Source: an uncultured bacterium (GTDB taxonomy: Bacteria; Patescibacteriota; Minisyncoccia; UBA6257; 2-01-FULL-56-20). From it: a stretch of 64,000 nucleotides of DNA. Below the pieces are notes generated by a model, which made no database searches, was not told where the DNA came from, and worked only from the letters and a program-made list of their open reading frames with translations. This document shows positions 8,294-36,834 of this stretch, one piece after another (positions within the stretch are counted from its first letter, which is position 1; each line of letters opens with the position of its first letter). The stretch spans positions 4,475-68,474 of the forward strand of contig CAWHOC010000012.1 in the NCBI GenBank assembly GCA_963830935.1. The letters run 5' to 3'. A program made the position numbers and the translations under genes.

Positions 8294-8300
8294 CCCGAGA

Positions 8301-8374
8301 ATCTAAAATACCCATTTCTTTGTACCGTTACGTCCGCGCACTAGGTACAAGGGGTGGGTATTTTAGATTTTTTT
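8301..8374 (+). terminator. long hairpin plus T-run terminator
   Basis: ATCTAAAATACCCA (8301..8314) pairs with TGGGTATTTTAGAT (8355..8368). There is an inner TTGTACC/GGTACAA stem, followed by TTTTTTT. Confidence 0.5.
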
Positions 8375-17748: not shown

Positions 17749-17798
17749 TTCCCACACCGGCTCCGGCTCCCCATTAATGATCTAAAGTACTCTATCCG

Positions 17799-18737: not shown

Positions 18738-18764
18738 TATCCCACTCGGCTTACAATAGAGGGG

Positions 18765-19397
18765 ATGCAGTACCAGGTACCACAATTCATCGACACCGAA
18801 GATAAGCTGGTAGGGCCGTTCTCCCTCCGCCAGTTCGCTTTTATTGGCGCGGCGGGGCTCATAAGCGCCATATGCTATTTCTTCGTACAAACGTGGCTGT
18901 TCGTCATCGTGGCGATCATCACGCTCGGCGGTGCGGTGGCGCTTTCTTTCGTTAAGATCAATGGCCGGCCGCTCATCAAGGTCATCATCTCCGCTTTTAA
19001 TTTTTACTGGAAGCCACAAATATACATCTGGAAAGCGGACCATCCGGTCGTGGCGCATAAACCGCAAGCTCCCACAAAAGCGGCGCGGGTATTGCCGGTT
19101 ATAAAAGAGGAGGGATCGTCTCGCAGGATAGTGGCGAGCAGCGGGGAAGCCGCACCGGCGGCAACATACGTTCCTCCGAGCGCGCCCGAACGCGAGCTGC
19201 CGCCGGTTCAGACGATCGCGCAAGGCGACTCGCTCCATAAGAGCTGGGAAAATCTCCAGACCGGCACGCCGGAAGGAGGCGATACTAGGAAAACATCCGA
19301 TCGGCAGTTTTTGGAGAAGAAGATGGCGGAGCGCTATCAAATATTCCAACGGATCGGCGGCGACCGCGCGGCGGCGCGGCGCGTGGATTATCGCTAG
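18765..19397 (+). CDS. PrgI-family (VirB3-like) T4SS membrane protein
   Basis: 'MQYQVPQFIDTEDKLVGPFSLRQFAFIGAAG' followed by two TM helices. Lies immediately upstream of the VirB4 ATPase, as in Gram-positive-type T4SS. Confidence 0.6.
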   Translation: MQYQVPQFIDTEDKLVGPFSLRQFAFIGAAGLISAICYFFVQTWLFVIVAIITLGGAVALSFVKINGRPLIKVIISAFNFYWKPQIYIWKADHPVVAHKPQAPTKAARVLPVIKEEGSSRRIVASSGEAAPAATYVPPSAPERELPPVQTIAQGDSLHKSWENLQTGTPEGGDTRKTSDRQFLEKKMAERYQIFQRIGGDRAAARRVDYR

Positions 19398-19418
19398 GAA
19401 ATATGGGAAAATAACATC

Positions 19419-21868
19419 ATGGCACCGGTACAAAAACAGGAGGCAGGAAATTCCGTCGACCTTGTTGACGTCAAAGAGATCAAAGAGAAGACCGTCGTCG
19501 TGAAAGACGGGAGCCTGCGCCAGATCATCATGGTGGGCGGCGTCAATTTTTCCCTCAAGTCCGACACGGAACAAAACATCATCACGCAGGGATACCAGAC
19601 ATTCCTGAACAGCATCGATTTCCCTCTGCAGATCGTGATCCATTCGCGGAAGGTGAACATTGATAAGTATATAGAGAGCTTGTTGCAAAGAAAAGAAGTT
19701 GAGCCGTCGCCCATCCTCCAAAACCAGATCGAGGAATACACAAAGTTCGTGAAGGGATTTGTGGAACAGAACGCGATCATGGAAAAGATCTTCTTGGTGG
19801 TCGTGTCGTTTTACCCCTTGGCCAGCGGCATCCAGAGCGTCAAAAAGGCCTCCGGCATACTCTCGTCCCTTGGCCTTGGGAAGAAGAAGGGGACCGCCGC
19901 CGAGGTGACGGCGCAGCACGCGGAAGATGAGGCGAAGGAGTTCGGGGAAAACCTCGCGCAACTGAACCAGCGCGTGACCCAGATAACGACGGGGCTCCTG
20001 AACATCGGCCTTGAGGCGACGCTCCTTGACGACGAACAACTCGTGGAGCTTTTCTATAATTTCTACAATCCCCAAACGGTCGAACGCACGGCGGCGCCCG
20101 TCGACCCCCGAACATAATATTATTTCACCATGCCGGAAGAACAGGAAAAAAATACTTTTGAGAATGTAAAGAAGATCATCGCGCCTGCGGGGGCGCAGGT
20201 GTTCCCTAATTACCTGAAGATCGGCGATAAACTCGCCAAGACATTCTTTGTATTTTCCTATCCACGCTATCTTTCGACCGGCTGGTTCGAGCCGCTCATC
20301 AATCTTGCCCAACCTTTTTGACATTTCCATCTTCATCAATCCGGTCGATACCGGGAGCGCGCTCAAAAAGCTCCGCAAAAAAGCGGGCCAACTCGAGTCG
20401 GAAATGAACGAGGAGCAGGCAAAGGGCTTGGTGCGAAACCCCGTGCTCGAGACCGCCATCAACGACGTGGAGGGATTACGTGATTCACTGCAACAGTCCG
20501 AGGAAAAACTTTTTGATACCGGCGTCTACATCACGATCTATTCGGATACCACGGAAGAGCTCGCGCGGCTCGAGAGCAAGCTCGTAACGATGATGGAAGC
20601 GAAATTGATCTACATCAAGCCCGCGCTTTTTGAGCAGCTTGAGGGCCTTTCTTCTGTGCTGCCCATCAACAACGATAAGTTGCAGATCTATTCCCCGATG
20701 AACACGAGCCCGATCTCCTCGTTCTTCCCGTTCGTGTCCGAAGACCTTTCGTCCAACCAGGGGATCATGTACGGCATCAACCTTCACAATAATAACCTTG
20801 TGATCTTCGACCGCTTCTCGCTCGAGAACGCGAACGAAGTGGTGTTCGCAAAGTCCGGCTCCGGCAAATCGTACACGACGAAGCTCGAGATATTGCGCGC
20901 GCTCATGGCGGGTATTGATATGGTGATCGTCATCGACCCGGAGAACGAGTATGGCCGCCTCGCGGAGACATTTGCGGGAAGCATGTTCAACATCTCTTTA
21001 TCGTCGCACGAGCACATCAATCCGTTCGATATCCCGCCGATTCCCGAGGGCGAGACGCCATCCGACGTATTGCGTTCACACATCGTAAACCTCGCGAGCT
21101 TGCTAAAGCTTATGCTTGGGAAGCTTACTCCCGAAGAGGACTCACTGCTCGACCGCGCGATCACGGAGACGTACGCCTCGCGCGAGATCGTCGCCGATAC
21201 GGACTTCACCGGGTAAAGAGCCGCCACTCTTGGGAGACCTGGAGACCATTTTACGGAATCTGGAAGGAGGCAAGGAACTTGCCGAAAAGCTATACAAATA
21301 CACAAAGGGCAGTTTTGCGGGATTCCTGAATCAGCCGACGAACATCGACGTCGCGAACCGCCTCATCATCTTCTCCATCCGCGACCTCGAAGAGGAGCTT
21401 CGCCCGCTCGGCATGTTCGTCGTGCTCAACTTCATCTGGAACCTTATCCGCGCGAAGCTCGCGAAGCGTCTGCTCTTCATTGACGAGGCATGGATCATGA
21501 TGAAGAACGACGACAGCGCCACATTCCTCTTCGGCCTCGTCAAGCGCGCGCGCAAATATTATTTGGGTGTCACCACGATCACGCAGGATGTGGAGGACTT
21601 TCTGCGGTCGCCCTATGGTCGCCCGATCGTCACCAACTCGTCACTCCAGTTATTGCTCAAGCAGGCGCCTGCCACGATTGATATCTTGGCGAAGGCGTTT
21701 GACCTGACGGATGCGGAAAAAAACTTTTTGCTCGGCGCCGCGGTCGGCACCGGCATCTTCTTTGCCGGCAAGCGCCACGTCGCCATCCAGATCGTCCCGT
21801 CATATTACGAAGATCAGATCATCACCACGAACCCCGAACAGTTGCTCGAGGAGAAAAATCAGAGCTAA
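19419..21868 (+). CDS. virB4: VirB4/TraE(TrsE)-type T4SS ATPase (in-frame TAA at 20115..20117 plus frame breaks ~20300 and ~21208)
   Basis: The N-domain 'VVVKDGSLRQIIMVGGVNFSLKSDTEQ', middle 'FVFSYPRYLSTGWFEPLINL', Walker A 'AKSGSGKSYT' and Walker B 'RLLFIDEAW' are spread over 4 track ORFs. Confidence 0.8.
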
Positions 21869-21880
21869 CCTTTATTTAGT

Positions 21881-22750
21881 ATGGCCGCGAAACCGGATCC
21901 AAAAATATCCACATCGGAGGCAGTACTTGTCGGGATATTTTTACTTGGCCTGGATGCGATCGATCTTATTCCTTTTGCGGGGGATCTTACCGATGTCGCC
22001 GCGGCGCCCTTGTTGCTCTACTATCACATGAAGCATATCAACGGGGTCATGTATGGGGTCGGCTTAATACTTGATCTCATTCCGGTCACGCAAGAATTTC
22101 CAACACGAAGCCTTGTGTGGTGGGGGACGGTCGCATTCGATCGCTTCGCCCCGGCAAAAGTTGAGGAGGCGGTTGAAAAACTCGGGGAGGTGGAAGAGGG
22201 AGGCGAGGGCGGCCCTGGAGGGGTTGAAGGCGAAGGAGAGCTCGGCGCCGGCGCGGCGGAGGGAACACAGCAGGGCGCGCAATCTGCGGAGCAAGCGGGT
22301 GAGAATGCTACTGCTGAGGCTAATGTTGAAAGCGAGCAGGCCGGAGAACGGGGCGGAGCGGGAGAATCCTCTGACGAGGGGGGTGGGGGCTCTCGTGTGG
22401 AACGCGAAGGAGGCGAGGCCGGCCAGGGAGAAGAAGCCGTGGAGGGTGAGGCGGGCGGAGGCGAGGGAGAAGAAGGCGGCGGCGAAAATAGAGAGGAAGA
22501 GGACCCAATGAGGAGAGATGCGGAAATAACGCCGGAGGAGGAAGCGGCAGAGGCGTCGTTTGGGCCTACGGAAACCGGAGACGACACTCCTCAAGCGGAG
22601 GAGGAACAGGACGAGGAAGCGCCGCCACATGACATCGATCCACAGGTGGACGGACCCGGGAGCAATGTGGACCAACCAAATAGTGGTGGTGCCGGGTCAA
22701 GGGATGGCGGCGGGCAAAGGAGGCGCCACAGCACTCGCCGCAGGCGTTAA
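21881..22750 (+). CDS. membrane protein with long acidic Gly/Glu-rich low-complexity tail
   Basis: Intact 289-aa ORF with N-terminal hydrophobic helices followed by an EGGEGG-type tail. Confidence 0.5.
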   Translation: MAAKPDPKISTSEAVLVGIFLLGLDAIDLIPFAGDLTDVAAAPLLLYYHMKHINGVMYGVGLILDLIPVTQEFPTRSLVWWGTVAFDRFAPAKVEEAVEKLGEVEEGGEGGPGGVEGEGELGAGAAEGTQQGAQSAEQAGENATAEANVESEQAGERGGAGESSDEGGGGSRVEREGGEAGQGEEAVEGEAGGGEGEEGGGENREEEDPMRRDAEITPEEEAAEASFGPTETGDDTPQAEEEQDEEAPPHDIDPQVDGPGSNVDQPNSGGAGSRDGGGQRRRHSTRRRR

Positions 22751-22772
22751 TTTGCTATACTAAAGTAAAGAT

Positions 22773-23489
22773 ATGCCCGCTCGTTCTACTATCAAGAAGG
22801 GAGTCGCGCTGGGATTTTTTGTTTTCTTTGGCGTCCTTTTCTTTTCGCTCAAAGGGGCAAGTGCCCAGACCGCATCGTCGCCACAATTTTTATTGACCTG
22901 GAAGGCCTCGAATAGTTATGTCCCCGCGTTCTATCAAGGGAAGGCGTTGCCCGGTTCGCCCGGGTCACAAATTACGGCGTCAGTGGAGTTGGTCTCCAAT
23001 GGAAAGCTCGTTAATTTGAGTTCTCAAAATATTTATTGGTACGAGGATGAGGTGCTGGTGGGAGGAGGGCCCGGCGTGCAACAGGTGACATTTTCTCCAT
23101 TCGGGGAGCCGCCCAGTACATTAATTTTGGACGTGGAAATTCCTCAGTACAGCGGCGGCTATCTTACCCACACGGTCGATATCCCGTTCGTGAGGCCCCA
23201 GGCGGTGATCTACGCCCCTTATCCCAATCAAGAATTTTCCACCAACCTCCTTGCGGTCCAGGGGCTTCCGTATTTCTTCTACGCAACATCGACGAATAAT
23301 CTTGTATTCAAATGGTCGGTCAACGGCCAAACCGGATCGAATCAGGAAAATCCGGATGTGGCGGAGATCACGCTCCCGCCGGGGACTCCGGGCGGAACAA
23401 GCTTTGGTGTTTCCCTTTCTATCAGTAACCCCTCCGGATCCACGGTCGCGACCGCGAACCAGGACTTTACATTCCAGAACCAGCTATGA
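22773..23489 (+). CDS. secreted hypothetical protein (signal peptide, beta-rich)
   Basis: Intact 238-aa ORF with 'ALGFFVFFGVLFFSLKGASAQ'. Its stop overlaps the next start (ATGA). Confidence 0.55.
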   Translation: MPARSTIKKGVALGFFVFFGVLFFSLKGASAQTASSPQFLLTWKASNSYVPAFYQGKALPGSPGSQITASVELVSNGKLVNLSSQNIYWYEDEVLVGGGPGVQQVTFSPFGEPPSTLILDVEIPQYSGGYLTHTVDIPFVRPQAVIYAPYPNQEFSTNLLAVQGLPYFFYATSTNNLVFKWSVNGQTGSNQENPDVAEITLPPGTPGGTSFGVSLSISNPSGSTVATANQDFTFQNQL

Positions 23490-23937
23490 TGCACTCTCTT
23501 TTTCTCGTAGCGCACGCGGTCACGATAAGCACTGCCATCCCCGGCAGCAATCTGAATAGCACCTCCACCGCCCCCGGGGCATACATCGCCAACTTCTATC
23601 AGTTCGCATTGTTGATAGGAGGGATCCTTGCCTTTGGCGCCATCGTATTTGGAGGCATCAAGTATGTGGCGTCCGCAGGCAATCCTTCCGCGCAAAGTGA
23701 TGGAAAGGAATGGATCTGGGGAGCCCTTATCGGACTGCTGCTCTTGCTGGAGTATATCTGATCCTGCAGGTGATCAATCCCCAGTTGCTCAACCTGAACC
23801 TGCCGACGTTGAATGCGATCACGGCGGCGAACAATACACAATCTGGGGCAGGTGGGGGAGCGGCTGCGTGTGGAAGCGGGAGCACTGACCCTAACTGCAC
23901 CTGTCCTACCGGACAATCTCCACAAGCCCAGCGGTGA
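23486..23937 (+). CDS. TrbC/VirB2-like T4SS pilin (frame break ~23745)
   Basis: 'ANFYQFALLIGGILAFGAIVFGGIKYVASAGNPSAQSDGKEWIWGALIGLLLL' continues in another frame as 'AGVYLILQVINPQLLNLNLP'. This is the two-helix pilin pattern common in CPR T4SS-like loci. Confidence 0.6.
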
Positions 23938-24116
23938 AGGACGGGGGGAAAGAGATAACTGACTATATCTGTGGAACTGGAGGTGGGGGTGGGGGGGGAG
24001 GGCAATACACGTGCAGCGGAACTACTTCCGGCACTTGCGCACCGGGGCAAACATGCCAGTCCACAAATTTCACTTCGGCGAGCGGAGTCGTCACAAAACT
24101 ATACTATTGCGGGTAG
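23934..24116 (+). CDS. Cys/Gly-rich small ORF, possibly the C-terminal extension of the pilin
   Basis: 60-aa ORF (GTG start) 'ICGTGGGGGGGGQYTCSGTTSGTCAPGQTC'. It abuts the pilin ORF with a 1-nt frame offset. Confidence 0.3.
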   Translation: MKDGGKEITDYICGTGGGGGGGGQYTCSGTTSGTCAPGQTCQSTNFTSASGVVTKLYYCG

Positions 24117-24140
24117 GCCAATACAAACACGATTAAAATT

Positions 24141-25484
24141 ATGAAACGCTATATTTATATCATCATCGGCATCGTGGTCGCGGCAGTGATAATCATCCTG
24201 GTTCTTTTCCTTATTAAAAACCGCGCGGCTGGCCCTTCTCTCGTCACATCAGGGACCGGTTCATTGCCCGCTACCGGCGCTCAAGGCAGCGGCAGCTCGT
24301 CGCCGGCGGGAAGCGGAGGGACGGCGTGTGGCGCCAGCCCAATTGGCCTTTCTCCTATAACCGGAAGCAGCACGCCCACCACCACGAGCGGACAAATGGC
24401 CGTGCAAAGTTTTGGCGTTCTTTCAAGCAATCCGGTCATTGATTATTTTGTTGACTCACATAACACCATCACCGCAATCGAGCCGACAGGGGAGGTATTC
24501 ACGGTCTCAAGTGGACAGTCTACGATAGTGAACTCTTCAACGATCGACAATATTATTTCCGCAAAGTTTTCTTACGACGGAAAGAAAATACTGGTAAGCT
24601 ATGGCGATCCCTCCAACCCACAAGCGGGGGTTTTTGATGTGGCGACCAACGCGTGGACATCCCTCCCTCAGGGTATGATATCTCCAGAGTGGGCTCCTCT
24701 TAATACGTATCAGATCGCATACCTCGTAACGACCAATAGTGGAAAGCTCGCACTCGCGACCATGGATGCGGCAAATCTTAAGATCGCTCCCTCCGCGCTG
24801 CTTTCACTCAACGCGAGCGACCTTACCCTCCAGTGGCCGTCAAAGACCGAATTCATTCTTTCTGACCGACCGACGGCACAAAGCCCCGGATCCATATGGG
24901 CGTTTAATTCTCAAACCGGAGGATTTTCTTCAATTCTGTATGGGGTAGATGGAGCGGAGAGCATGTGGAGCAATAACTCAACATTCCCTTATGGCCTCTT
25001 ATTCTTTAATGGGAATAGTGGGAACACCCTGGAGCTACAGGCGCTTTCAGGAAATCTCCCCACCGAATCTCTTACGTTCGCCACGCTTCCGTCAAAATGT
25101 GTATTTAATACGGAATCGATGCCTATCGCCTCATCCAGCACTTCAACAACTGCCGCCACATCGACGCCTTCTTCCACCACAAAGAAAGCCCCTGCGCCGG
25201 CCAAAAACTCTCCGACATCAACCCCGTATCTCGCCCTCTATTGTGGCGTTCCGCGCGGCTCAAGCGGATTCTCTTCGGCACATCTTCCGGACGACTACAA
25301 TATGATGGCTCTTTTCACTTCGGATGACCTCTATAAGGTAAACACGCAGACAGGGGCGGTGCAGTCGCTCTGGAGCGACGCGACGCAGAACGTGGATGTC
25401 TCGGATGTAAAGTTTGCGAACAACGCGCTCTTCTTCGTCAACCGTTACGATCAGAAACTGTACGGGCTTACATTCACAAATTAA
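24141..25484 (+). CDS. N-terminally anchored hypothetical protein, beta-propeller-like body; last gene of the T4SS-like operon
   Basis: Intact 447-aa ORF with TM helix 'YIYIIIGIVVAAVIIILVLFLI', a Ser/Thr/Gly linker and repetitive beta-strand-like segments. Confidence 0.6.
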   Translation: MKRYIYIIIGIVVAAVIIILVLFLIKNRAAGPSLVTSGTGSLPATGAQGSGSSSPAGSGGTACGASPIGLSPITGSSTPTTTSGQMAVQSFGVLSSNPVIDYFVDSHNTITAIEPTGEVFTVSSGQSTIVNSSTIDNIISAKFSYDGKKILVSYGDPSNPQAGVFDVATNAWTSLPQGMISPEWAPLNTYQIAYLVTTNSGKLALATMDAANLKIAPSALLSLNASDLTLQWPSKTEFILSDRPTAQSPGSIWAFNSQTGGFSSILYGVDGAESMWSNNSTFPYGLLFFNGNSGNTLELQALSGNLPTESLTFATLPSKCVFNTESMPIASSSTSTTAATSTPSSTTKKAPAPAKNSPTSTPYLALYCGVPRGSSGFSSAHLPDDYNMMALFTSDDLYKVNTQTGAVQSLWSDATQNVDVSDVKFANNALFFVNRYDQKLYGLTFTN

Positions 25485-25539
25485 AAAGCTTGCTGTTCGC
25501 CTCCAGGCAGATGACCGTTCGGCGAACAGCAAGCTTTTT
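25483..25539. terminator. bidirectional hairpin, copy A of the conserved-core hairpin family
   Basis: AAAAAGCTTGCTG / CAGCAAGCTTTTT arms around the core TTCGCCTCCAGGCAGATGACCGTTCGGCGAA (25496..25526), which is the reverse complement of the core in copies B and C. Confidence 0.55.
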
Positions 25540-25544
25540 AATTT

Positions 25545-25979
25545 TTATATGATGGGCTTAATTATTACGTAGCGTTCTTTCCCTTCGCCGGCGCTTTCTG
25601 TTTTCACTTCGGGGTGTAGAGCGAGCTCCATGTGCACGAGGCGCCGCTCGTATGAGTTCATCGCGGGAAGCGCGACCTCCGTCTTGGTTCCTGCCGCTTT
25701 TTTCGCCGCCGCTCGTGCGAGCTCTCCGATCAACCGCTCGCGGTCGTGCCGGTAATTATTAACGTCGAGAAATATCGCCTCGGTCTGATTTTTTTTGGCG
25801 ACCATCTGTAAAATATGATTGACCGCGTCCACGATCGCGGGAAGGTTCTCTTTCACCATCTCCTGGTCCTCATAAATGAATACCGATCCGCGGCGCTCGT
25901 CCATCTTGATCTCCAAATGATAATCGGCGAACCCGATAAGGTCGAAGGTTTTTTTAATGTATGATTCCCAATTGTCCAT
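25545..25979 (-). CDS. jag: Jag/KhpB-like RNA-binding protein (KH + R3H)
   Basis: 'LPAMNSYERRLVHMELALHPEVKTESAGEGKERYVII' is an R3H motif. Conserved position downstream of yidC. Confidence 0.75.
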   Translation of the reverse strand: MDNWESYIKKTFDLIGFADYHLEIKMDERRGSVFIYEDQEMVKENLPAIVDAVNHILQMVAKKNQTEAIFLDVNNYRHDRERLIGELARAAAKKAAGTKTEVALPAMNSYERRLVHMELALHPEVKTESAGEGKERYVIIKPII

Positions 25980-26030
25980 GTATTCCCGTTATCATTCCAT
26001 ATTTTACGTACAAAATCAAGCGAGGCGCAT

Positions 26031-26084
26031 AAAATATCCGTTCCGCCGGAACGATCATCTGCCTGGAGGCGAAGCGGATATTTT
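26031..26084. terminator. hairpin, copy B of the conserved-core family (downstream of yidC)
   Basis: AAAATATCCG / CGGATATTTT arms around TTCCGCCGGAACGATCATCTGCCTGGAGGCGAA. Confidence 0.5.
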
Positions 26085-26099
26085 GTCGCGTGCGATACT

Positions 26100-26813
26100 T
26101 TACGCGCCGAATTTCTTCTGCAGATGCTTGTTCACGAAATACTGCTGGATGGCGGAGAAGAGCGCGCTCATGAACCAATATAAGCTGAGCGCCGCAGGGA
26201 AATTATAAAATACGAGGATGGTGATGACGGGGCCGACAAACACCATCTGCCGCGCGATCTTTTCCGCTTGCGTCGGCGCGGCGGTGTTGGATGGGTTGCG
26301 ATAGATGGCGAGGCGCGCCTGAAGAAATTGCGCGAGCGCGGCGGCGAAGATGAGAATGAGGTTCGGCTTCGCGAGGTCGACGAAGGTAAGGAAGATGGTG
26401 TTGATGTGTTGTGGCGCGGCGATGAACGAGTAGAGTCCGGTGATCTCGGCGGTGCCGACGCCGGAGCGGATCACCCAATAGAACGTGAGGAGGATCGGGA
26501 TCTGTATGATGAGCAGTAATATGCCGGAGAACGGATTGACGCCGTGCTCTTTATAGAGCTCCATCAGCGCTTTCGCCTGCTGATCGCGATCGTTCTTATG
26601 TTTGGTCTGAATATCTTTTATCTTTGGCTGGATCCTCTGCATCAACATCTGCTGCTTCGCACCGGTGTGGAAGAACGGATAGAGGACGAGCCGGATGAAA
26701 AGGGTTACCAATATGATCGCGATGCCGAGGTCGTGGAACCCGATTGTGTTATAGAAAAAAATAAGGAGGTTGAGGATCGGCCGATAAAGGATCTGTTGAT
26801 AAAGATATACCAT
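26100..26813 (-). CDS. yidC: membrane protein insertase YidC (short form)
   Basis: Intact 237-aa ORF in the conserved rpmH-rnpA-yidC-jag order. Multi-TM, with 'ELYKEHGVNPFSG'. Confidence 0.85.
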   Translation of the reverse strand: MVYLYQQILYRPILNLLIFFYNTIGFHDLGIAIILVTLFIRLVLYPFFHTGAKQQMLMQRIQPKIKDIQTKHKNDRDQQAKALMELYKEHGVNPFSGILLLIIQIPILLTFYWVIRSGVGTAEITGLYSFIAAPQHINTIFLTFVDLAKPNLILIFAAALAQFLQARLAIYRNPSNTAAPTQAEKIARQMVFVGPVITILVFYNFPAALSLYWFMSALFSAIQQYFVNKHLQKKFGA

Positions 26814-26819
26814 GGGTTT

Positions 26820-27140
26820 TTATTTTGGTCGGTTTTTTGCGAGCGCTTTTGTAAGCTCTTCCTGAAATTGCTTTTTCGTCAGCCGGTTCACTCCTGGCAA
26901 AACTATCATAAGGATATCACTTCCTGCGTCTGCCTGTGGCGCAAGCCCATGGAGCGCCTGGCGCTTCCAAAAATTCCTTTTTACTGCGGTTTTATGCACG
27001 GAAGTTCCCACCACCACCCCGATCCTCGTGCTGGCCCCATTGTTCTTTTTTGTTTTTAGTAGAAAAAATGGGGTTGGGGTTGTTTTATAGCCCCGCACGC
27101 GGAACTGATCCGACGGAAGCCGCGCTATTTTTGTGGCCAT
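26820..27140 (-). CDS. rnpA: ribonuclease P protein component
   Basis: 106-aa basic protein between rpmH and yidC, with 'GVVVGTSVHKTAVKRNFWKR'. Confidence 0.75.
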   Translation of the reverse strand: MATKIARLPSDQFRVRGYKTTPTPFFLLKTKKNNGASTRIGVVVGTSVHKTAVKRNFWKRQALHGLAPQADAGSDILMIVLPGVNRLTKKQFQEELTKALAKNRPK

Positions 27141-27158
27141 AGCGGCAAAATACCCTTT

Positions 27159-27293
27159 TTAAACGCTCAATTTCCGCCTTCCCTTCGCGCGGCGGCGCGA
27201 GAGCACGCGGCGGCCCGTAGGCGTGGCCTGGCGGACCAAAAACCCGTGGGTCGTCTTCCTTTTTTTCTTTTTGGGATTGTATGTGAACGACAT
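27159..27293 (-). CDS. rpmH: 50S ribosomal protein L34
   Basis: '[44 protein letters not shown]', starting at the internal ATG 27293 of track ORF 27159..27440. Confidence 0.9.
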
Positions 27294-27461
27294 TCCCCGA
27301 TGATACCACGCCATTTTTAAAAAGCAAAATTGTTTTTTGCGCCGGTTTTGCGTTCTCCCCACGTTCTCCCCAGGAAGAGAACTTTCGCGCCCTTCCCGGC
27401 CCTTTGACTTGTGTGAAAGAAGAGATAATAATGAATCCACAAACTTAATTAATTTTTAATC

Positions 27462-28816
27462 ATGGACCTTGAACAAATGTGGCAGTCGACGTTGGGGGAG
27501 ATGGAGGTTCAACTGACGAAGGCACACTTTGCAACCTGGTTAAAAAATAGCCGGCCGATCGACAAGAAGGATGATACGCTGTTCGTCGCACTCCAAAGCA
27601 ACTTCGCGAAGACGTGGGTGGAGGAAAAATATCAAAAGAACATCATCGGCATCGTCCGCAATATGGACACGTCGGTCAAAAAGATAGAGTTCGTGGTGGG
27701 GAATAAGAACATTCCAGTCAGCAGGCCTTCTTTGGACGCAAAAGATGAACCGAACAGCGCCGCAGCGGAGCTCGATTTCAATAAGACCGACCCGGAGACG
27801 GGGCTGAACCCTAAATATACCCTGGCGTCTTTTGTTGTTGGCCCGTCGAACGAGCTTGCGTTCGCCGCCGCGACCGCCATCACGGACGGTCCCGGGAAAA
27901 AATATAATCCTTTCTTTGTATACGGCGGCGTCGGCCTCGGCAAGACGCATCTCATCCAGGCGATCGGCAATGAGATCGTCACGAAGTATAAAAACAAAAT
28001 AAAACCAAAATATGTTTCCTCGGAACAGTTCACGCGCGACATCGTCTGGGGGTTGCGCAACGACCGGATCGAGAGCGTAAAGAAAAAATATCGAGATGTC
28101 GACGTATTGATCATCGATGACATCCAATTCATCGGCGGGAAGGAAAAGACGGAGGAAGAATTCTTTCACACCTTCAACGCGCTCTATGAAAGCAATAAAC
28201 AGATTATTATTTCGTCTGACCGGCCGCCACAGTCGCTGCCAACCCTCCAGGAACGCCTCCGCTCGCGCTTTGAAGGCGGGCTTATCGCCGATGTGTCCTA
28301 CCCGGAGTACGAGATGCGTGTGGCTATTATCCGAAGCAAGCTCCAGGAGATGAACCGGAAGCTCTCCGACCAGGTGATAGACCTCATCGCAAAGAAGCTC
28401 CGCAAGAACATCCGCGAGTTGGAGGGGGTACTCAAAAAGATCATATTTTATGAGGAACGGAAGCAGACCGAGATCAGTATAAAGATGGCGGAGGAGATCA
28501 TAGAAAAGGCGACCCAAAACCTTTCAAAGAGGGTGAATGACTCGCAGATATTGAAGGCGGTCGCGGAGTTCTTTAGTATCACCGTAGAGGACCTTGTGAG
28601 CCATAACCGGCGCAAGGAAGTGGTGGAGCCGCGCCAGATCGCGATCTATCTTCTTCGGGATATCTCCGACCTTTCCTATCCGTATATTGGTGAGAAGCTG
28701 GGAGAGATCACACCACCGCGATCCACTCCTATGAAAAGATCAACAATGAGATCAACAGAAATCCGGCACTTAATCAAAAGATATTAACAATAAAAGATAT
28801 AATTTATAAGAGTTAA
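27462..28816 (+). CDS. dnaA: chromosomal replication initiator DnaA (frame break ~28700 at a G-run)
   Basis: 'FVYGGVGLGKTHL', 'LIIDDIQFIGGKEKTEEEFFHTFN'. The true C-terminus 'GRDHTTAIHSYEKINNEI...' is in the next frame and ends at TAA 28814..28816. Confidence 0.9.
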
Positions 28817-28948
28817 TCCCATCGCTATCCACATAGGATATCCAATACAAAGCATACTGGTATTGAATAATAAAAAGTTATCCACTAAAAATCCATTACC
28901 AACAACAACTCTTATAAAAAGTATTTAAATATAATCTATAATTAAGAG
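28817..28948. other. candidate oriC (dnaA-dnaN intergenic): AT-rich with DnaA boxes
   Basis: cTATCCACA at 28825..28833 and TTATCCACt at 28878..28886, followed by a very AT-rich stretch ATAAAAAGTATTTAAATATAATCTATAATTAAG. Confidence 0.5.
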
Positions 28949-30062
28949 ATGAAATTTATCGCGATACGGGCAAATATCAAAGACGCTGTTTCTGTGATTG
29001 AGAAGGCGGTGGGGGAAAATACCAACCTCCCAATACTAAAAAATATCCTCATTGAGGCGGAGGATAATACAATTATATTTACCGCCACAAACCTAGAGGT
29101 TGCGATAGCACACCGGGTTGCGGGAAAAGTGATTGAGAATGGAAAGCTTACCGTCCCACTGGCACTTTTCTCGAGCTTAATTGGGAATATCCAAAGTGAC
29201 CGGCTAAATTTCGAGAAGAAAGAGAATAACCTCGAGATCGCCACGGATAATTACAGCGCGACGATCAATGGGATGCCCGCCGATGATTTTCCTATTACGC
29301 CAAAAATAAAAAATACCGAGAGCTATATCGAGATAAAAAATGTCTTCCTCAAAGAAGCCATCCAGCAGGTCACGGTTGCGTCGCAATATTCCGATCTGCG
29401 GCCGGAGTTGAACAGCGTCCTATTCAACTTCTCACTCGAGAGCTTAGTGCTGGCGTCAACCGACGGATTCCGTCTCGCGGAAAAATCCATACCCTCAAGC
29501 GCTTTCGGCGACGAAGAAAAAAGAACCATTTAGAATGCTTGTGCCCCTCCGGACCGCCCTTGAGGTCGCGCGGATCATGCGGGACGAAGAAATGGTGCGG
29601 ATCTATCAGGATGAGAATCAGGTATTATTCAAAACCGACCAGACCGAGATGATCTCGCGCCTCGTGGAAGGCAGCTTCCCGGACTATTCCGCGATCGTGC
29701 CGCACGAGTTCGCCGCCGAGATCGTGGTAGAGCGGGACGAATTTATCAACGCGATAAAACTCGCCGGCGTCTTCGGGCAGAAGAACAGCGAGGTCAAGAT
29801 AAAGATCCATCAGAACAAAAAAGCGATAGAGATCAGTTCCGCGGACCAAGCGCTTGGTGAGAACAATCACATCCTCCCCGCAAAGATCAAAGGCGAGATC
29901 CCGGAAGTGTTTTTCAACTGGCGTTATCTCTCCGATCCAATAAAAGCGATCAAGACAGAAGATGTGTTCCTCGGCCTCCAAGAAGACGCGGGCCCGGCGC
30001 TCATCCGCTCCGTCAGCGATGCATCGTATTTCTACGTTCTTAAGCCGATATTAAAATCGTAA
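28949..30062 (+). CDS. dnaN: DNA polymerase III beta sliding clamp (frame break in the A6 run 29517..29522)
   Basis: ORFs 28949..29533 and 29535..30062. Reading through the A-run gives ...GDEEKKEPFRMLVPLRTALE.... Confidence 0.85.
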
Positions 30063-30071
30063 GTCGGTCGG

Positions 30072-32201
30072 CTAACCACCATAACCGTTCGCGAGCGCCC
30101 AGTTGTCGACGCCCGTCTCCCAATTATTATATTGGGGATCTATCGCGGGATTCGTCGGATCCGGCCCGTTCGGATCGCTCTTGTCGACGTAGTAGAGGAT
30201 GTCGTGTACTTGTCCGTTGATAACATATTGCCCACTAAGGGTCGGCTTGGTGGACGTCGTCGGGTTCGGCTGGATGAACGTCGTATTCGGCACTTCGGGA
30301 AGCGCCTGCGTCATGAAGGCGCTCCACATCGGGACCGCCGCGAGGATGCTCGAGCCCGCTTTTTGCATCGGCGCGTCGTTCGTGTTTCCCGCCCACACGC
30401 CGACGACGAGTGACGGGGTATAGCCCATTGCCCACGCATCAGTGTAGTTGTTTGATGTTCCGGTCTTCAGCGCCACGTCATAGCCGGGAAATACCGTCAG
30501 GTTCTGGCTCCCGCCCATAAGCGGCGCGCGCGCGGACGCATCCGAAAGAATATCATTGATAAGATTCACCGACTGCGCATCCGCCACTGTCGAGGTTTGG
30601 TCACTGTACGATTCAAGCGTGTTGCCATTCGCATCCTGCACGGAGAGGATCATGCTCTGCGCGTGCTTTACCCCCTGCTGTGAGAGCACCGAATATGCCT
30701 CAGTGAGATCGATGAGCTTCACCGCGCCGCCGCCCAACACCAACGAGAGCCCGTACTGCGACGGATCGGTCAGGGTGGTAAGGCCGAAATTGTAGGCGTT
30801 CTGGATGGCGTTCTGTTCGCCTACGAGATAAAGCATTTTTACCGCGGGGACGTTCACGGATTGCGCGAGCGCGTTGCGGATCGTGAGAGGACCGGCGAAC
30901 GTCCCTTCAAAATCTTGAGGATGGAAGCATTTGGTGTTCGTGGAATTATAATCGGGGACCGCGGGACACTGCGCGTTGATGCTGAATTCCGTCGGCACAT
31001 CGAAGAGAATCGTGTCCGGCGTATATCCCATCTGGAATGCGGTAAGATAGACAAATGGCTTGAGCGACGAGCCCGGCTGGCGCAGGCCTTGCGTCGCCAC
31101 ATCAAAATTGCCGTCATTCGAGGTGTCGAAGTAATCTGCCGACCCAACTAGTGCGAGAATTTGCCCCGTGGTCGGGTCCTGCGCCACCAGCGCGGCATTC
31201 GTCGCTTTATAGAGTTGCGTGTTGCGCGCGACGCCCGCCGTGACGGCGGCTTCCGCCTGCTGCTGCATCGTCCAGTTGAGCGTGGTGATCACCTTGAGGC
31301 CGCCGTTATCCACCTCGTTCTCGCCGTATTTCTGCACGAGATAATTTTCCACCGCCATCACGAAGTGCGGCGCGCGGATTCCCGACCCGCTCGCGGTCTG
31401 CGGCTGGAAGACGATTTTGAAGTTCTGCGCGGCGGTAAGCTGCGCTTTTGTGATCTTGCCGGTGTCGTACATCTGCTGGAGTACCAACTGCTGGCGTTGG
31501 AGCAGCTCCTTCACGTGCGTGCCGTACGGGGAATAATACGTTGGCGCCTGCGGGAGTGCGGCGAGCACGGCGCTCTGCGCGATATTGAGCTGTCCCACCG
31601 GTACGCCAAAATAATCCTGCGCTGCCTCGCCGACACCAGAGATATTCGGTCCATAGGGAACCTCGTTTAAATAGAGCGCGAGTATCTGGTCCTTTGAGTA
31701 ATATTCATTCAATTTGACCGCGAGAATGAACTCGCGGATCTTGCGCGAGACCGTCTGATCGAGTGTGAGAAACGCGGTGCGCGCAAGCTGTTGAGTGATC
31801 GTAGAGCCGCCCTCCGCAAATGAGTGGGTGGTAATGTCCACAAAGAGCGCGCGGAGGATCCCTTTTATATCAAACGCCGGCTCATTATAAAAATTCTGAT
31901 CCTCGATGGCGATCGTCGCATCCTTGACGCTCTGCGGAATCTGGTCGAACGGTACGAGCGTGCGGTGGTTGCCGTTGTCGATGTCGTACAACAGCACGGC
32001 GCCGGTGCGATCATAGATCTTCGTGGACTGGCCGATCTGCTGGCTGCCGATCTCCTGGATGGACGGCACGGTCTTCGCGAAATAAAGCACCGCGATCGAT
32101 ATCGCAATCACCAACACAACCACAACGACCCCGGCTATCTGGAGGATCTTGATATACCTCTTTTTTTTCTTCTTTGGAGACGGTCGGAAGTCGCTATTCA
32201 T
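30072..32201 (-). CDS. class A penicillin-binding protein (transglycosylase/transpeptidase)
   Basis: Intact 709-aa ORF with an N-terminal TM. GT51 motifs 'IAIEDQNFY' and 'GGSTITQQLAR'; transpeptidase motifs 'SSLKP' and 'KTGTS'. Confidence 0.85.
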   Translation of the reverse strand: MNSDFRPSPKKKKKRYIKILQIAGVVVVVLVIAISIAVLYFAKTVPSIQEIGSQQIGQSTKIYDRTGAVLLYDIDNGNHRTLVPFDQIPQSVKDATIAIEDQNFYNEPAFDIKGILRALFVDITTHSFAEGGSTITQQLARTAFLTLDQTVSRKIREFILAVKLNEYYSKDQILALYLNEVPYGPNISGVGEAAQDYFGVPVGQLNIAQSAVLAALPQAPTYYSPYGTHVKELLQRQQLVLQQMYDTGKITKAQLTAAQNFKIVFQPQTASGSGIRAPHFVMAVENYLVQKYGENEVDNGGLKVITTLNWTMQQQAEAAVTAGVARNTQLYKATNAALVAQDPTTGQILALVGSADYFDTSNDGNFDVATQGLRQPGSSLKPFVYLTAFQMGYTPDTILFDVPTEFSINAQCPAVPDYNSTNTKCFHPQDFEGTFAGPLTIRNALAQSVNVPAVKMLYLVGEQNAIQNAYNFGLTTLTDPSQYGLSLVLGGGAVKLIDLTEAYSVLSQQGVKHAQSMILSVQDANGNTLESYSDQTSTVADAQSVNLINDILSDASARAPLMGGSQNLTVFPGYDVALKTGTSNNYTDAWAMGYTPSLVVGVWAGNTNDAPMQKAGSSILAAVPMWSAFMTQALPEVPNTTFIQPNPTTSTKPTLSGQYVINGQVHDILYYVDKSDPNGPDPTNPAIDPQYNNWETGVDNWALANGYGG

Positions 32202-32240
32202 AAGTAAAACGCCTTCTTATTTTACCTCTTTTAAGGAAAT

Positions 32241-32293
32241 AAAATACCCCTTTCGCCGAACAGTCATCTGCCTTGAGGCGAAGGGGGTATTTT
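32241..32293. terminator. hairpin, copy C of the conserved-core family
   Basis: AAAATACCCCT / AGGGGGTATTTT arms around TTCGCCGAACAGTCATCTGCCTTGAGGCGAA. Confidence 0.5.
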
Positions 32294-32298
32294 ATCTA

Positions 32299-32487
32299 TT
32301 ATTCTATCGGGCTCGCGCTGTCATCCGTGTCGGTATCAGTCGCGACATCCGTGTCATCGTCCTCATCCATATCGTCGTCGTCAAGATCGCCGGGAGCATC
32401 GACGACGGTCGGGTCCTCGTCGTCTTCGTCGCTCAATCCGCGAAAGGCGAGCTTTGCTGGAAATAATTCAGTTACCATAATTGCCAA
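32299..32487 (-). CDS. small highly acidic hypothetical protein
   Basis: 62-aa ORF (Asp/Glu-rich) between ruvC and hairpin C. Coding status uncertain. Confidence 0.3.
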   Translation of the reverse strand: MAIMVTELFPAKLAFRGLSDEDDEDPTVVDAPGDLDDDDMDEDDDTDVATDTDTDDSASPIE

Positions 32488-32526: not shown

Positions 32527-33010
32527 TCATCGCGCACTGTCAAGTAAGCGCTCCCCTGTGGATAAAATAGCCAGGGCGAGCGCGTCGCTCGCATCATCGA
32601 TCAGCTTCAAGTCTCCCTTGCCGAGGATAAGGCGGACCATTTTAAGCACCGCCTTCTTGTCCGCGAGGCCGTATCCCGTCACGCCCGACTTTACTTCGTT
32701 TGGCGTGTACTCCTTTATACGAACACCGCGCTCTTTTGTTGCAAGCAGGATGACGCCCCGCGCTTGCGCGACGGCGAGCGCGGTCCTTGGTGTTTTTGGC
32801 GAAGAAAAGCTTTTCAATTGCCACCACATCGGGCTTGTGCTTTTTTATGAGCGCGTCGATGCCTTTTTTGGTCTCCTCAAGCGCCGGCACGTCATCGGTG
32901 GAGGTGATCGCAAGGATCCCCGCTGTCACGAACGTTATCGTGGGGCCGTTGCATTCCACCACGCCGTATCCTATCCGCCGGGTTCCCGGGTCGATGCCGA
33001 GCGCGATCAT
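32527..33010 (-). CDS. ruvC: crossover junction endodeoxyribonuclease RuvC (frame break ~32790)
   Basis: 'MIALGIDPGTRRIGYGVVE' is in ORF 32642..33091. 'ALAVAQARGVILLA...GYGLADKKAV...DDASDALALA' is in ORF 32527..32829. Confidence 0.8.
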
Positions 33011-33017
33011 AAAAATT

Positions 33018-33560
33018 TCATGAAAAATTAATATTACTATAGACGTTTTGGACGTCGTCATTGTCCTCGAGCGCATCAAGGAGGGCGACAAGTTTTTCTT
33101 TCTCTTCGTCCGGAATATCTTGCGGAAATTTTGCCGTCCATTCGCCGCCGGGGCCGCCCGCGTGTTCGAACGCCCATTGCACGCTTCCGGACTCCGCCCA
33201 CTTGCCGTTGTGGTCGCGCAGAACTGTTTTTATTTCCTGCGCCGTGCGGTTGCGGTTATCGCTGAGCGCCTCGATGAGGATCGCCGCGCCGCCGGGCCCG
33301 TACGCTTCATATAATAATTCCTCCAATTTTTCCGCCGGGTCGGCGGCGCGCTTGATTGCGCGATCGATCGTGTCCGCCGGCACGCCTGCCTCGCGCGCTT
33401 TCGCGACCGCCGTGCGGAGGCGCGGATTGAAGTCCGGGTTCGGCTCGGCGTGCGCCGCCGCCGAGATCAATTTGAGCGATTTCGAAAATATCTTTCCCCG
33501 CTTCTTGTCGGTGATCTCTTTTTTGTGTTTTATTCCCGCCCAATGCGAATGTCCTGACAT
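33018..33560 (-). CDS. yebC: YebC/PmpR-family DNA-binding regulator (short form)
   Basis: 'MSGHSHWAGIKHKKEITDKKRGKIFSK...' starts at the internal ATG 33560. TGA stop at 33018..33020. Confidence 0.8.
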   Translation of the reverse strand: MSGHSHWAGIKHKKEITDKKRGKIFSKSLKLISAAAHAEPNPDFNPRLRTAVAKAREAGVPADTIDRAIKRAADPAEKLEELLYEAYGPGGAAILIEALSDNRNRTAQEIKTVLRDHNGKWAESGSVQWAFEHAGGPGGEWTAKFPQDIPDEEKEKLVALLDALEDNDDVQNVYSNINFS

Positions 33561-33598: not shown

Positions 33599-35353
33599 AT
33601 GCTTGACGCACCTCAGAACGACCTAAAAGAGAAGCTCGCAAAGCTCCGGCGCGACGGCGAGGAGCGCGCCGCCCAACGGCTCGCGGAGAAGCTTGGGCTT
33701 TCGTATGTGGACCTCGGAAAGGTTCCCGTGTCGCTCGATGCGGTGAGGATATTAGCCGGAGAACGAGGCGAAGGACGCAAAAGTTGCGGCAATCGAACTG
33801 AAAGCGAATAAGGTTGCGCTTGCGGCGGCTCAATCCGGAACTGCCCGCCACAAAACAAGTCGTCGAGGAGCTCGCGGCAAAAAAATATGAAGTAAAGGTG
33901 GTCGTTGTTTCGCCATCCAGTATGGATGCGGCGTGGCATTTTTATCAGTTCATAAACCCGGCGTCGGAAACGATCACGGGGAAGGTGGAGATCGCCGAGG
34001 AGCGCCTTGATGCGCTTGAAGGCAAGGCTTGATGACGATCGACGCGGTGCACAAAGAGATCGCTGCGCTTCCGCTCGCGAATGTGTCGCCGGTGGCGCTC
34101 ATCGAAATAATTTTGGCGGGCGCGATGGGATTGCGCGCGTCGGACATTCACACCGAGGCGGGGGAGAAAAAAGCGAAGATCCGTTTCCGCATCGACGGAC
34201 TGCTTGCACGACATGTTTGACGACATTCCGCTTGGCGCGTATCACACGTTCGTGTCGCGCATCAAATTGCTTTCCGAGATGAAGCTGAATGTGCGCGATG
34301 CGGCACAGGACGGCCGCTTTACGATCGGGCTTGGCGATAAAGATATCGAGATGCGCGTGTCCGTGATCCCGGCGGAGTTCGGCGAGACGATCGTTATGAG
34401 AATTTTGGATCCGTCGGCGACGATGGTCACCTTGCCGCAGCTTGGACTTCGCGCGGACAACCTCGCGCTCGTAAAGAAGAAGATATCCCAGCCGAACGGG
34501 CTTGATTTTGAACACCGGGCCGACCGGTTCCGGAAAGACGACGACACTTTACGCGTTCTTGCGCACCATGAACGATCCGACGATGAAGATCATCACCCTT
34601 GAGGACCCGATCGAGTATCGGATCGAGGGCATGGAGCAGACGCAGATCGACGAGGAGGCCGGATATACCTTTGGCAACGGGTTGCGCGCCATCGTGCGCC
34701 AGGACCCGGACGTGATCCTGGTTGGCGAGGTACGCGATCTTGAGACGGCGGATATCGCGCTTGAAGCGGCGCTGACCGGGCACTTGGTGCTCTCAACGCT
34801 GCACACGAACGATGCGGTCGGCGCGGTGCCGCGCTTGATCAATCTTGGCGTGAAGGCGGTGAGCATCGGCCCGGCGCTTTCGCTCGCGATCGCGCAACGC
34901 CTCGTGCGCGTGCTCTGCAAGGATTGCAAAAAAGAGGCCGCGCTGGATGCGGCGACCGCGGAGAAGATCGCAAAATTCCTTGCCGCGTTGCCGGCTAAGG
35001 TGGATAAGAAAGCCATATGACGGCTATAAGATCTATGCGCCGGTGGGATGCGAAAAGTGCAATGGCATCGGATACAAAGGTCGCGTTGGCGTATTTGAAT
35101 TTTTGGAAGGCGGCGGCGGATCTGGAGAAAACAATCTTGCAGGAAGCGTCGGAGGTTGCGTTTGCGCGAGGTGGCCGCGCGGCAGGAGATGGTGACGATG
35201 CAGCAGGACGGAATTTTGAAAGTGCTTGAAGGGAAGACGACATTTGAGGAGGTGATCGGCGCGACGGGGGATGTTGGTGTGGTGAGTCGCGATTATGTTA
35301 CCTGCCGGCAGATGATAGTTCGGCAAAAATACATGCGCACTCACGCTCATTGA
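33599..35353 (+). pseudogene. GspE/PilB-type type II secretion / type IV pilus assembly ATPase, about 7 frame breaks or stops
   Basis: Fragments lie in 7 or more track ORFs. They include the N-terminal T2SSE_N-like 'LAEKLGLSYVDLGKVPVSLDA', 'ASDIHTEAGEKKAKIRFRIDG', Walker A 'TGPTGSGKTTTL', 'IVRQDPDVILVGEVRD', 'TGHLVLSTLHTNDA' and 'CEKCNGIGYKGRVGVFE'. Confidence 0.75.
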
Positions 35354-36751: not shown

Positions 36752-36834
36752 CGAGACAGTGTCCTGCCGAGATGGCGGACCCAAATCCTGTTTGTCACAA
36801 AAATAGCCCCTTCGCGGGGGCTGTTTTTGTTTTT
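36752..36834 (+). ncRNA. candidate small RNA (~80 nt) between the promoter-like block and an intrinsic terminator
   Basis: A hairpin GTCC-T-GCC/GAGAT/GGC-GGAC, then the terminator AGCCCC-TTCGCG-GGGGCT + GTTTTTGTTTTT (36805..36834). No family recognised. Confidence 0.3.

Follow-up and report, generated by a model that had tools for sequence, protein, structure and literature searches.

A conserved 19-nt loop on unrelated terminator-like hairpins of Paceibacteria-like bacteria, tentatively read as a REP-like tip module

Results

Three hairpins with a common loop near the replication origin

The stretch of DNA analyzed here (the window, 64 kb in all) is the replication-origin neighborhood (dnaA/yidC) of an uncultured, ultra-small, Paceibacteria-like bacterium of the candidate phyla radiation (CPR). 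A type IV secretion system (T4SS)-like operon ending in a 447-amino-acid (aa) open reading frame (ORF) is followed by hairpin copy A, jag, hairpin copy B, yidC, and rnpA and then by dnaA, dnaN, the PBP1A gene, hairpin copy C, a small acidic ORF, ruvC, and yebC. The three hairpins, which are the subject of this report, share a 19-nt loop closed by the helix TTCGCC/GGCGAA, and this common tip is carried on complementary arms that are unrelated from copy to copy and are flanked by an A-run at one end and a T-run at the other end (Table 1; coordinates refer to the window unless a locus with an L number is named). A first-pass annotation of the sequence had described three such copies as a common core set in different, self-complementary, A/T-capped arms. 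Searching the 64 kb with the pattern GAACRRTCATCTGCCTKGAGGCGAA and allowing up to 3 mismatches returned the same three places, against 0.00 matches expected from 100 shuffles, and the arms and loops are as that annotation had them.

All three copies fold as a single long hairpin with a loop of 19 to 20 nt (fold energies of −39.8, −24.8, and −31.9 kcal/mol and z = −9.8, −3.4, and −7.3 for A, B, and C, respectively). Copy A, which carries the loop as GAACGGTCATCTGCCTGGA (the GAACGG, or GA, form) on the − strand, forms 25 pairs, with the pairing reaching 25476-25546. The genes on either side converge on it: its first arm bases overlap the stop of the 447-aa ORF, and the jag stop (25545, − strand) falls 5 nt past the hairpin. 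Copy B follows the stop of yidC (26100, − strand) by 15 nt and precedes the start of jag (25979) by 51 nt, and because of this place and strand the yidC transcript would carry the complementary UC form; its 5′ closing arm, TTCCGCCG, has one or two extra bases, leaving the stem imperfect. Copy C follows the small acidic ORF (32299-32487, − strand), 5 nt past its stop, and is 39 nt upstream of the PBP1A start (32201). The density in the window is about one copy per 20 kb (3 in 64 kb).

Four things had escaped the first-pass annotation: a decayed fourth copy, the association with tRNA genes, the orientation bias, and the place of the core as one of several exchangeable tips. The decayed copy (35298-35326) has flanks that are only partly complementary, and 20 consecutive bases are identical to the loop variant called type 1b, as found in L011, L026, and L114. 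The same annotation had pointed to a hairpin at 8301-8374 with arms like those of copy C but a different core. That hairpin is real, and its outer arm AAAATACCCA does resemble copy C, but we rejected it as a relative of the family: the interior is unrelated and has no copy in any of the fetched loci.

The core recurs at more than 80 sites in relatives and metagenomes

A genome scan with the exact pattern, restricted to one genome per species, gave 26 loci, about 20 of which are true copies in about 9 CPR metagenome-assembled genomes (MAGs); the remaining matches are a few chance ones in coding DNA of unrelated bacteria. One chance match (L024, 176-1374, from a Poriferihabitaceae MAG) involves a 294-bp tandem repeat of at least 5 copies that is unrelated to the hairpin family. 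A metagenome scan of JGI contigs gave 82 loci, which, to go by the accession series alone, probably come mostly from peat or bog samples. After duplicate removal, 87 distinct copies were left, 80 of which align to a covariance model; by the exact pattern, 5 to 8 copies were found per MAG. The relatives are labeled Paceibacterota, Minisyncoccia, or Parcubacteria, and the genomes shown to carry the tip belong to a narrow clade, with a YidC at least about 82% identical to that of the window.

If no further copies existed and relatives lacked the core, chance resemblance or a local duplication near the origin would have been the natural explanation, as the first-pass annotation had noted, and the three window copies do lie within 7 kb of each other. 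However, none were expected by chance, and more than 80 copies occur elsewhere, on unrelated arms and beside unrelated genes. The genome and metagenome scans thus refute this explanation, which retains virtually no probability, and since the core is found at more than 80 distinct sites in relatives and metagenomes, the hairpins form a genuine repeat family. A phage origin was rejected as well: the 24-33 kb region of the window showed no similarity to phage genome records, and no viral contig matched the core pattern.

The loop reads GAACGGTCATCTGCCTGGA in 64 of the 79 distinct rows, an invariance that is partly built in because the scan patterns fixed 15 of the 19 loop positions; diverged loops were seen among the covariance-model matches in flanking sequence. 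In the stem, 92.5% of the cells are paired and 16 of the 20 pairs have changed on both sides, a level that none of 500 shuffles reached. The conserved part consists of the loop and a closing helix of 4 to 6 bp, and the distal arms are unrelated between sites yet complementary. Compensatory flips in the closing helix, from CGCC/GGCG to CGGC/GCCG and to CGTC/GACG, indicate that pairing, not sequence, is kept there. The stems that the first-pass annotation called compensatory do have complementary arms, but these are mostly independent, locus-specific stems and not the product of covariation among orthologues. The consensus, whether of 24 or of 80 copies, has an A-run before the stem and a T-run after it. 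Within the loop, columns 30 and 41 of alignment A4 could pair (GT 67, GC 4, TG 3, AT 2, TA 2, and GG 1), a weak signal made up mostly of transitions plus one subfamily event, and TTCGCCGAA is a 9-bp palindrome.

At gathering thresholds, Rfam models found three tRNAs only in the window. The Rfam scan that the first-pass annotation had recommended gave no family for the hairpins, and permissive scans returned generic hairpin matches only (mir-3660, for one, scored 34.5 bits where the threshold is 70); we therefore rejected a known RNA family. Full-text literature searches showed no trace of the core sequence, nor of a CPR terminator or RNA motif of this kind, and the family appears to be undescribed, its unusual features being a conserved loop on a varying stem and exchangeable tips. 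About 0.7 Mb searched for a trans copy or a split (interrupted) core contained neither, only chance 11-mers in coding DNA. Likenesses of CCAGGCAGAUGAC to E. coli 4.5S RNA, the C-box/K-turn, the hammerhead CUGAUGA, the PyrR site, and the elemental pause consensus were discarded because partner elements are missing or the feature is lost in loop types 2 and 3.

The hairpins lie at gene ends, often after tRNA genes, and are built like terminators

At least one side of the hairpin is a gene end in 63 of the 80 aligned copies (the other 17 are unclear), and convergent genes flank 14 of them. ORF stops fall between −5 and +13 nt from the hairpin foot, and all copies are extragenic except the decayed one at 35298-35326, which falls in coding sequence. 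The flanking ORFs (n = 125) belong to a housekeeping mix of 95 Pfam families, none of them enriched, and an association with a particular gene family was rejected.

About 30% of the copies (26 of 87) directly follow a tRNA 3′ end. In these, the 5′ arm begins 0 to 8 nt past the discriminator base, CCA is encoded by only some of the tRNA genes, and the stem often pairs with the last 4 to 8 nt of the preceding tRNA. At L008, L016, L020, L037, L049, L099, and L106, the stem of the putative terminator runs 4 to 8 nt into the 3′ acceptor strand (in L016 including the encoded CCA), so that the tRNA fold and the terminator base would compete for the same nucleotides in the primary transcript. Within 255 nt of L026 (2285-2539; the same as L035), a single tRNA-Pro(cgg) gene stands between a type 1b copy upstream and a type 1 copy downstream. 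The window has three tRNA genes (36886, 61140, and 63464), and a core hairpin follows none of them; the orthologous tRNA-Ser in L005 and L037 has one.

The copies combine a stable hairpin (−25 to −40 kcal/mol) with a T-run that follows it, just 3′ of a transcription unit, as expected of intrinsic terminators. Plain terminators of the same genomes have the same A-run, stem, and T-run, with loops of 4 to 7 nt. Terminator loops are typically 3 to 8 nt long, and because the 19-nt loop exceeds this length, a simple terminator scan missed the full long-stem hairpins A, B, and C. From this anatomy and position we take the copies to be putative two-way intrinsic terminators. The first-pass annotation had suggested that the hairpins double as bidirectional terminators, and their build and their place at gene ends fit that prediction.

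Orientation follows transcription

The loop is not placed at random with respect to the gene it follows. Among the 80 canonical copies, a gene end lies only on the side that gives the transcript 5′-UCCAGGCAGAUGACCGUUC-3′ in 42 and only on the other side in 7, with the convergent (14) and unclear (17) copies making up the rest. The tRNA-linked copies show the same bias (22:4). The dnaA gene separates copies B and C, which have the same orientation, whereas copies A and B, on the same side of it, have opposite orientations. This layout rules out replication direction as what sets the orientation, which instead follows transcription.

The minority orientation bears on one further explanation, a small-RNA or kissing-loop network in which GA-form hairpins pair with UC-form 3′-end loops, each loop type forming a network of its own. 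The two loop forms are perfectly complementary, and transcription of both is to be expected from the 7 sense-only and 14 convergent copies, set against 42 antisense-only ones. In each of the two MAGs sampled best, about one sense-only copy neighbors the gene of a stable RNA, next to tRNA-Ser in L005 and upstream of tmRNA in L002. However, the window has no sense-only copy, a 19-nt loop-loop duplex would be topologically strained, and no observation needs the idea, which we consider highly improbable. Two tmRNA genes (L002, 2110-2424, and L077, 4825-5144; tag ANSKVAAPRAFAFA or ANSKVAAPKFALAYA, each ending in a stop) lie about 300 nt downstream of sense-oriented copies, and these are among the few contexts in which the transcript would carry the GAACGG form.

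At orthologous sites the tip is either kept or replaced

To follow sites A, B, and C across relatives, ten syntenic origin regions were fetched by YidC identity (95% down to 66%), a choice in which the motif was not used. At site A, the window has the core loop (type 1); type 3 appears in L114, there in the opposite form, type 4 in L115, and type 5 in L116; plain terminators stand in L112, L113, L118, and L120; L006 has an orthologous copy with related arms. At site B, type 1 is found in the window and in L113, type 1b in L114, an unrelated loop in L112, the type 4 loop (GGGCTCACCCTTCGGGATTG) in L115, and a type 5 interior in L116; the L007/L113 ortholog has common arms, AAAATATCC. At site C, the window carries the core, whereas in L112, whose YidC is 95% identical, the apex CCCGTATTCGAATACGGG stands in its place on the same outer arms, AAAATACCCC. 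Six other relatives have small-loop hairpins at this site, and L115, L116, and L119 have large non-core interiors, that of L115 being type 3-like. Relatives with a YidC identity of 76% or less show no recognized module family at sites A to C and mostly have small-loop terminators, with large unrelated interiors in L118 at site B and in L119 at sites A and C.

A search for an “empty site” (identical arms without the core) found only chance matches of low-complexity arms; among the syntenic loci, the comparison of the window with L112 at site C is one good case. Switches of the tip were also seen elsewhere. After an identical tRNA-Pro(cgg), the arms align closely with compensatory changes, but L026 has a type 1 loop and L073 a type 2 loop; two more orthologous sites switch between type 1 and type 3. 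Where type 1 was present in both members of an orthologous pair (17 pairs), 10 of 323 loop positions differ, compared with a divergence of about 16% in the flanks and more in the arms, an estimate of loop conservation that is biased because both partners were found by the loop pattern. The tip is thus either kept almost unchanged or replaced outright at orthologous sites, and the clade has at least five families of apex modules, among which types 1, 1b, and 2 form a graded series.

Further tip families were seen on unrelated arms in L115 (10725-10790, 11390-11490, and 10850-10927), L116 (10718-10787 and 11301-11376), L077 (6657-6742), L086 (3315), and L105 (476). The type 4 tip, GGGCTCACCCTTCGGGATTG, contains a CCC-UUCG-GGG mini-hairpin; the type 5 tip, TTTCGTTCCGACGTCGGAACGTCCGCTCGCTCAG, contains a 16-nt palindrome; and a related loop, AAATACCACGTWGGAACGTGA, was also found. 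None of these three has an Rfam match.

Other features of the window

The T4SS-like operon (about 14000-25484 in the window and 11287-20714 in L112-L121) adjoins the origin genes in every relative examined. It encodes a DUF87/TraG-like ATPase, TraC-like and PrgI-like proteins, and several proteins without a family, and its T4SS_pilin Pfam matches are weak to unmarked, varying by locus.

More A-run/T-run hairpins with large interiors (13 to 35 nt) unrelated to the core lie at 21901-21943, 15467-15527, and 1307-1345; AAAAATATCCAC-ATCGGAGGCAGTACTTGT-CGGGATATTTTT is an example. They may represent further tip families, or families in decay. At 36797-36830, just upstream of tRNA-Ser(tga), there is a strong terminator of the ordinary kind (ACAAAAATAGCCCC-TTCG-CGGGGGCTGTTTTTGT).

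Two genes of the window are interrupted: dnaN (28949-30062) is broken into two ORFs in different frames at about 29533, and ruvC (32527-33091) is likewise split, into ORFs at 32642-33091 and 32527-32829. Other contigs with an identical YidC carry intact dnaN (370 aa) and ruvC (160 aa), and we therefore attribute the frameshifts to faulty assembly or to defects of the strain. The source of the window is probably an assembly that contains indel errors, possibly a long-read one, or else a defective strain.

Table 1. Hairpins and neighboring genes in the window
Feature	Coordinates	Strand	Details
Copy A	25483..25539	−	Arms AAAAAGCTTGCTG (25483-25495) / CAGCAAGCTTTTT (25527-25539)
Copy A closing helix TTCGCC/GGCGAA	25496-25501 + 25521-25526		Loop 25502-25520
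Copy B	26031..26084	+	Arms AAAATATCCG / CGGATATTTT; loop GAACGATCATCTGCCTGGA at 26049-26067
Copy C	32241..32293	+	Arms AAAATACCCC / GGGGGTATTTT; closing helix TTTCGCC/GGCGAA; loop GAACAGTCATCTGCCTTGA at 32258-32276
Decayed core copy, type 1b loop GCCGAACTATCATCTGCCGG	35298..35326	−	Covariance model, 19.6 bits, model positions 20-48
447-aa ORF, without Pfam match	24141..25484	+	Last gene of T4SS-like operon; its transcript would enter copy A
jag (R3H domain)	25545..25979	−	PF01424, E = 8e-17; copy B upstream, copy A downstream
yidC, predicted to be terminated by copy B	26100..26813	−	PF02096, E = 2.5e-46
Small acidic ORF downstream of ruvC, predicted to be terminated by copy C	32299..32487	−	56-63-aa gene called in all relatives
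Terminator-like hairpin, not a family member	8298..8371		A-run/T-run, unrelated 40-nt interior; from fold

Discussion

We tentatively favor, with somewhat less than even confidence, the explanation that these hairpins are two-way terminators whose apex bears a non-autonomous module, akin to repetitive extragenic palindromic (REP) elements, which spreads among hairpin tips. Each hairpin would consist of an A-run, a locus-specific stem of 13 to 25 bp, and a T-run, with the stem and the U-run doing the terminating, and would begin 0 to 15 nt past the stop codon or tRNA 3′ end of the gene whose transcript enters it. The tip would be an add-on module of about 31 nt, made up of the closing helix TTCGCC/GGCGAA and the 19-nt loop GAACGGTCATCTGCCTGGA. 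The niche of this module would be the loop of a terminator hairpin, among which a copy or replacement process would spread it. The tip is probably dispensable for termination, because plain hairpins serve the same orthologous sites. The likeness to REP sequences is suggested by the unrelated stems, the graded subfamilies, the swaps, flips, and losses of the tip, and the decayed copies. The first-pass annotation had offered a REP-like or MITE-like (miniature inverted-repeat transposable element) family, a binding motif, or an RNA module; a repeat family it is, strict REP or MITE membership is not borne out, and the options are narrowed.

Several observations count against a spreading module. 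No transposase or RAYT gene was found among the top 25 of the 95 Pfam families of the flanking ORFs, and tblastn with approximate IS200 TnpA/RAYT queries found nothing in about 0.7 Mb of flanking sequence; both are weak tests. The copies show no target-site duplication and no sharp boundary, conservation fading from CGCC through the T and T positions (19-21). The 6:1 orientation bias and the 30% tRNA association would fit a function of the RNA 3′ end equally well, and the low rate of loop change in retained pairs resembles purifying selection for a host function. Termination itself is predicted from sequence and position. Finally, among non-Watson-Crick pairs of the stem, 26 G·T pairs fall on the GAACGG strand and 12 on the transcript strand, and the closing-helix wobbles are divided 10 to 3 in the same direction. 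The GAACGG strand is antisense to most of the terminated genes, and the excess of wobbles there is explained neither by a spreading module nor by a tag on the transcript (discussed below).

Together with the GA...GA that brackets the loop on the GAACGG strand in all loop types, the wobbles are weak hints that this strand folds better, at odds with the orientation rule. They would suit a DNA-level signal, in which the 31-bp core, as a duplex or an extruded hairpin, is the target of a DNA-binding protein with a role in, for example, DNA uptake, recombination, topology, or roadblock termination, and terminator loops are the sole tolerant place for it in a compact genome: the wobbles and a possible tandem G·A closure favor the GAACGG strand, the one that would serve as template for most terminated genes. 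Both orientations retain the same sequence, TTCGCCGAA is a palindrome, and the T4SS-like operon and pilus genes adjoin the site. However, 3 copies in 64 kb is a density far below that of uptake sequences, and only 2 type 1 or type 1b copies reach the covariance threshold in 207 kb of synteny-chosen loci. The core always sits at the exact apex of a continuous stem, a position that duplex binding would not need, its orientation tracks transcription and not replication, and several unrelated loop families occur within one genome. To our knowledge, the core resembles none of parS, dif, Ter, or the DnaA boxes. We therefore judge a DNA-level signal to be improbable.

A stronger competitor, though still on balance an unlikely one, is a host-selected 3′-end tag: the loop on the transcript (UCCAGGCAGAUGACCGUUC) would be read by a clade-specific RNA-binding protein or an antisense RNA, and the factor would act on tRNA precursors and mRNAs in trailer removal, protection from 3′ exonucleases, entry into decay, or termination efficiency, the other loop types having other readers. 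Such a tag would explain why the loop hardly varies across more than 60 unrelated stems and has changed about five times less than the flanks in the 17 pairs, why orientation follows transcription so strongly (42:7 overall and 22:4 at tRNAs), why the hairpin abuts tRNA 3′ ends, and why the closing helix keeps its pairing through compensatory flips. The authors who described the mycobacterial TRIT hairpins, in the passages concerned, argued in the same way that high sequence conservation implies extra machinery (PMC3152330). On the other hand, the module is probably dispensable, since relatives with a YidC identity of 91 to 95% have a plain terminator or a different module at orthologous sites; a genome of roughly 0.8 Mb would have to supply a separate reader for every one of at least five module families; the same loop is kept in sense-oriented copies; and the wobble pairs favor the opposite strand. 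The conservation estimate carries the bias described above. Nor did a partner RNA emerge: complementarity of the loop to the 5′ half of 16S rRNA and to tmRNA gave duplex energies no better than shuffled sequences, leading us to reject pairing with either, and the 0.7 Mb held no trans copy.

A more far-reaching reading, which we find rather unlikely, is that terminator tips of this clade hold exchangeable cassettes of about 18 to 34 nt, in at least five families of which the 31-nt core is the commonest, that home to, and take each other's place at, the exact apex of unrelated hairpins and are oriented with transcription. They would then be either a new, tiny kind of hairpin-tip mobile DNA or a swappable 3′-end address code on tRNA precursors and mRNAs.

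The family can be set against several known systems. The REP, BIME, and REPIN elements of Proteobacteria are short extragenic palindromes at 3′ gene ends or between convergent genes that can terminate transcription or stabilize RNA. They are non-autonomous and have a species-specific consensus, and it is a matter of debate whether they benefit the host or only themselves. REP stems are conserved, with a GTAG-type head that is read by a RAYT transposase, and there are hundreds of copies, often in doublets or clusters. The hairpins described here are similarly extragenic, at 3′ gene ends or between convergent genes, but their copy number is modest, the copies are single, and they have no GTAG head; in place of a conserved stem, their distal arms are unrelated and each stem is unique. 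MITEs are elements of 50 to 500 bp with terminal inverted repeats, a target-site duplication, and a sharp limit of similarity. In the hairpins, the inverted closers of 6 bp might be taken for terminal repeats, but direct duplications are absent, the boundary is gradual, and the unit is only about 31 bp.

Uptake sequences (DUS of Neisseria, USS of Pasteurellaceae) occur about once per kilobase, also within genes and irrespective of orientation, and inverted pairs of them form the stems of terminators. Like these, the core is a clade-specific conserved sequence in many terminator-like hairpins. Unlike them, it is a single asymmetric loop sequence that is rare (3 copies in 64 kb), extragenic (coding only for the decayed copy), and oriented with transcription at a bias of 6:1. 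A 3′ hairpin read by a dedicated protein is known from the histone mRNA 3′ stem-loop with SLBP and from chloroplast 3′ inverted repeats with PPR-type binders. These offer a functional analogy only, as they are eukaryotic or organellar, whereas the hairpins here have a U-run and look like ordinary bacterial terminators.

The nearest precedent is TRIT, the “Tuberculosis Rho-independent terminator” of Mycobacterium (Gardner et al. 2011, PMC3152330), which passages of that paper describe as a lineage-restricted terminator hairpin, conserved in sequence and structure, placed tightly at gene ends, mostly bidirectional, with 147 copies in M. tuberculosis; there its authors propose extra machinery that binds the motif. 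As presented in those passages, TRIT is a palindrome with both halves conserved in sequence (PMC3152330), whereas in the family described here the stem is locus specific and the tip alone (the loop and a helix of 4 to 6 bp) is conserved. The TRIT passages in question (PMC3152330) mention no tRNA association, orientation rule, or exchange of tip families, and there is no sequence similarity between the two. Unexplained dyads are also on record just after tRNA genes or with a 19-nt spacer. In Methanopyrus kandleri, the palindrome CGTTA-N9-TAACG lies about 10 bp downstream of about half of the tRNA genes and was suggested to be a 3′-maturation signal (PMC5217627), and Mycobacterium has the motif CGAAA(N)19TTTCG (PMC5217627). 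The likeness ends there: the sequences and organisms differ, and it is the dyad halves that are conserved in those motifs. The same source lists terminator-linked motif pairs in H. influenzae and A. pleuropneumoniae, which the paper itself does not call uptake sequences (PMC5217627).

Terminators are usually treated as sequence-free structures, yet this clade keeps a 19-nt loop near letter-perfect on dozens of unrelated stems. The motif is a ready marker of terminators and strand orientation in these MAGs, and a covariance model of it takes little effort to make and would be suitable for deposition in Rfam. Were the loop a self-propagating cassette, it would rank with the smallest repeats known to have a defined niche and would add a new case of DNA homing to the tips of hairpins. 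If instead a factor reads the loop, this would point to a hitherto unknown layer of 3′-end control, over termination, tRNA trailer removal, or RNA stability, in organisms with almost no known regulators.

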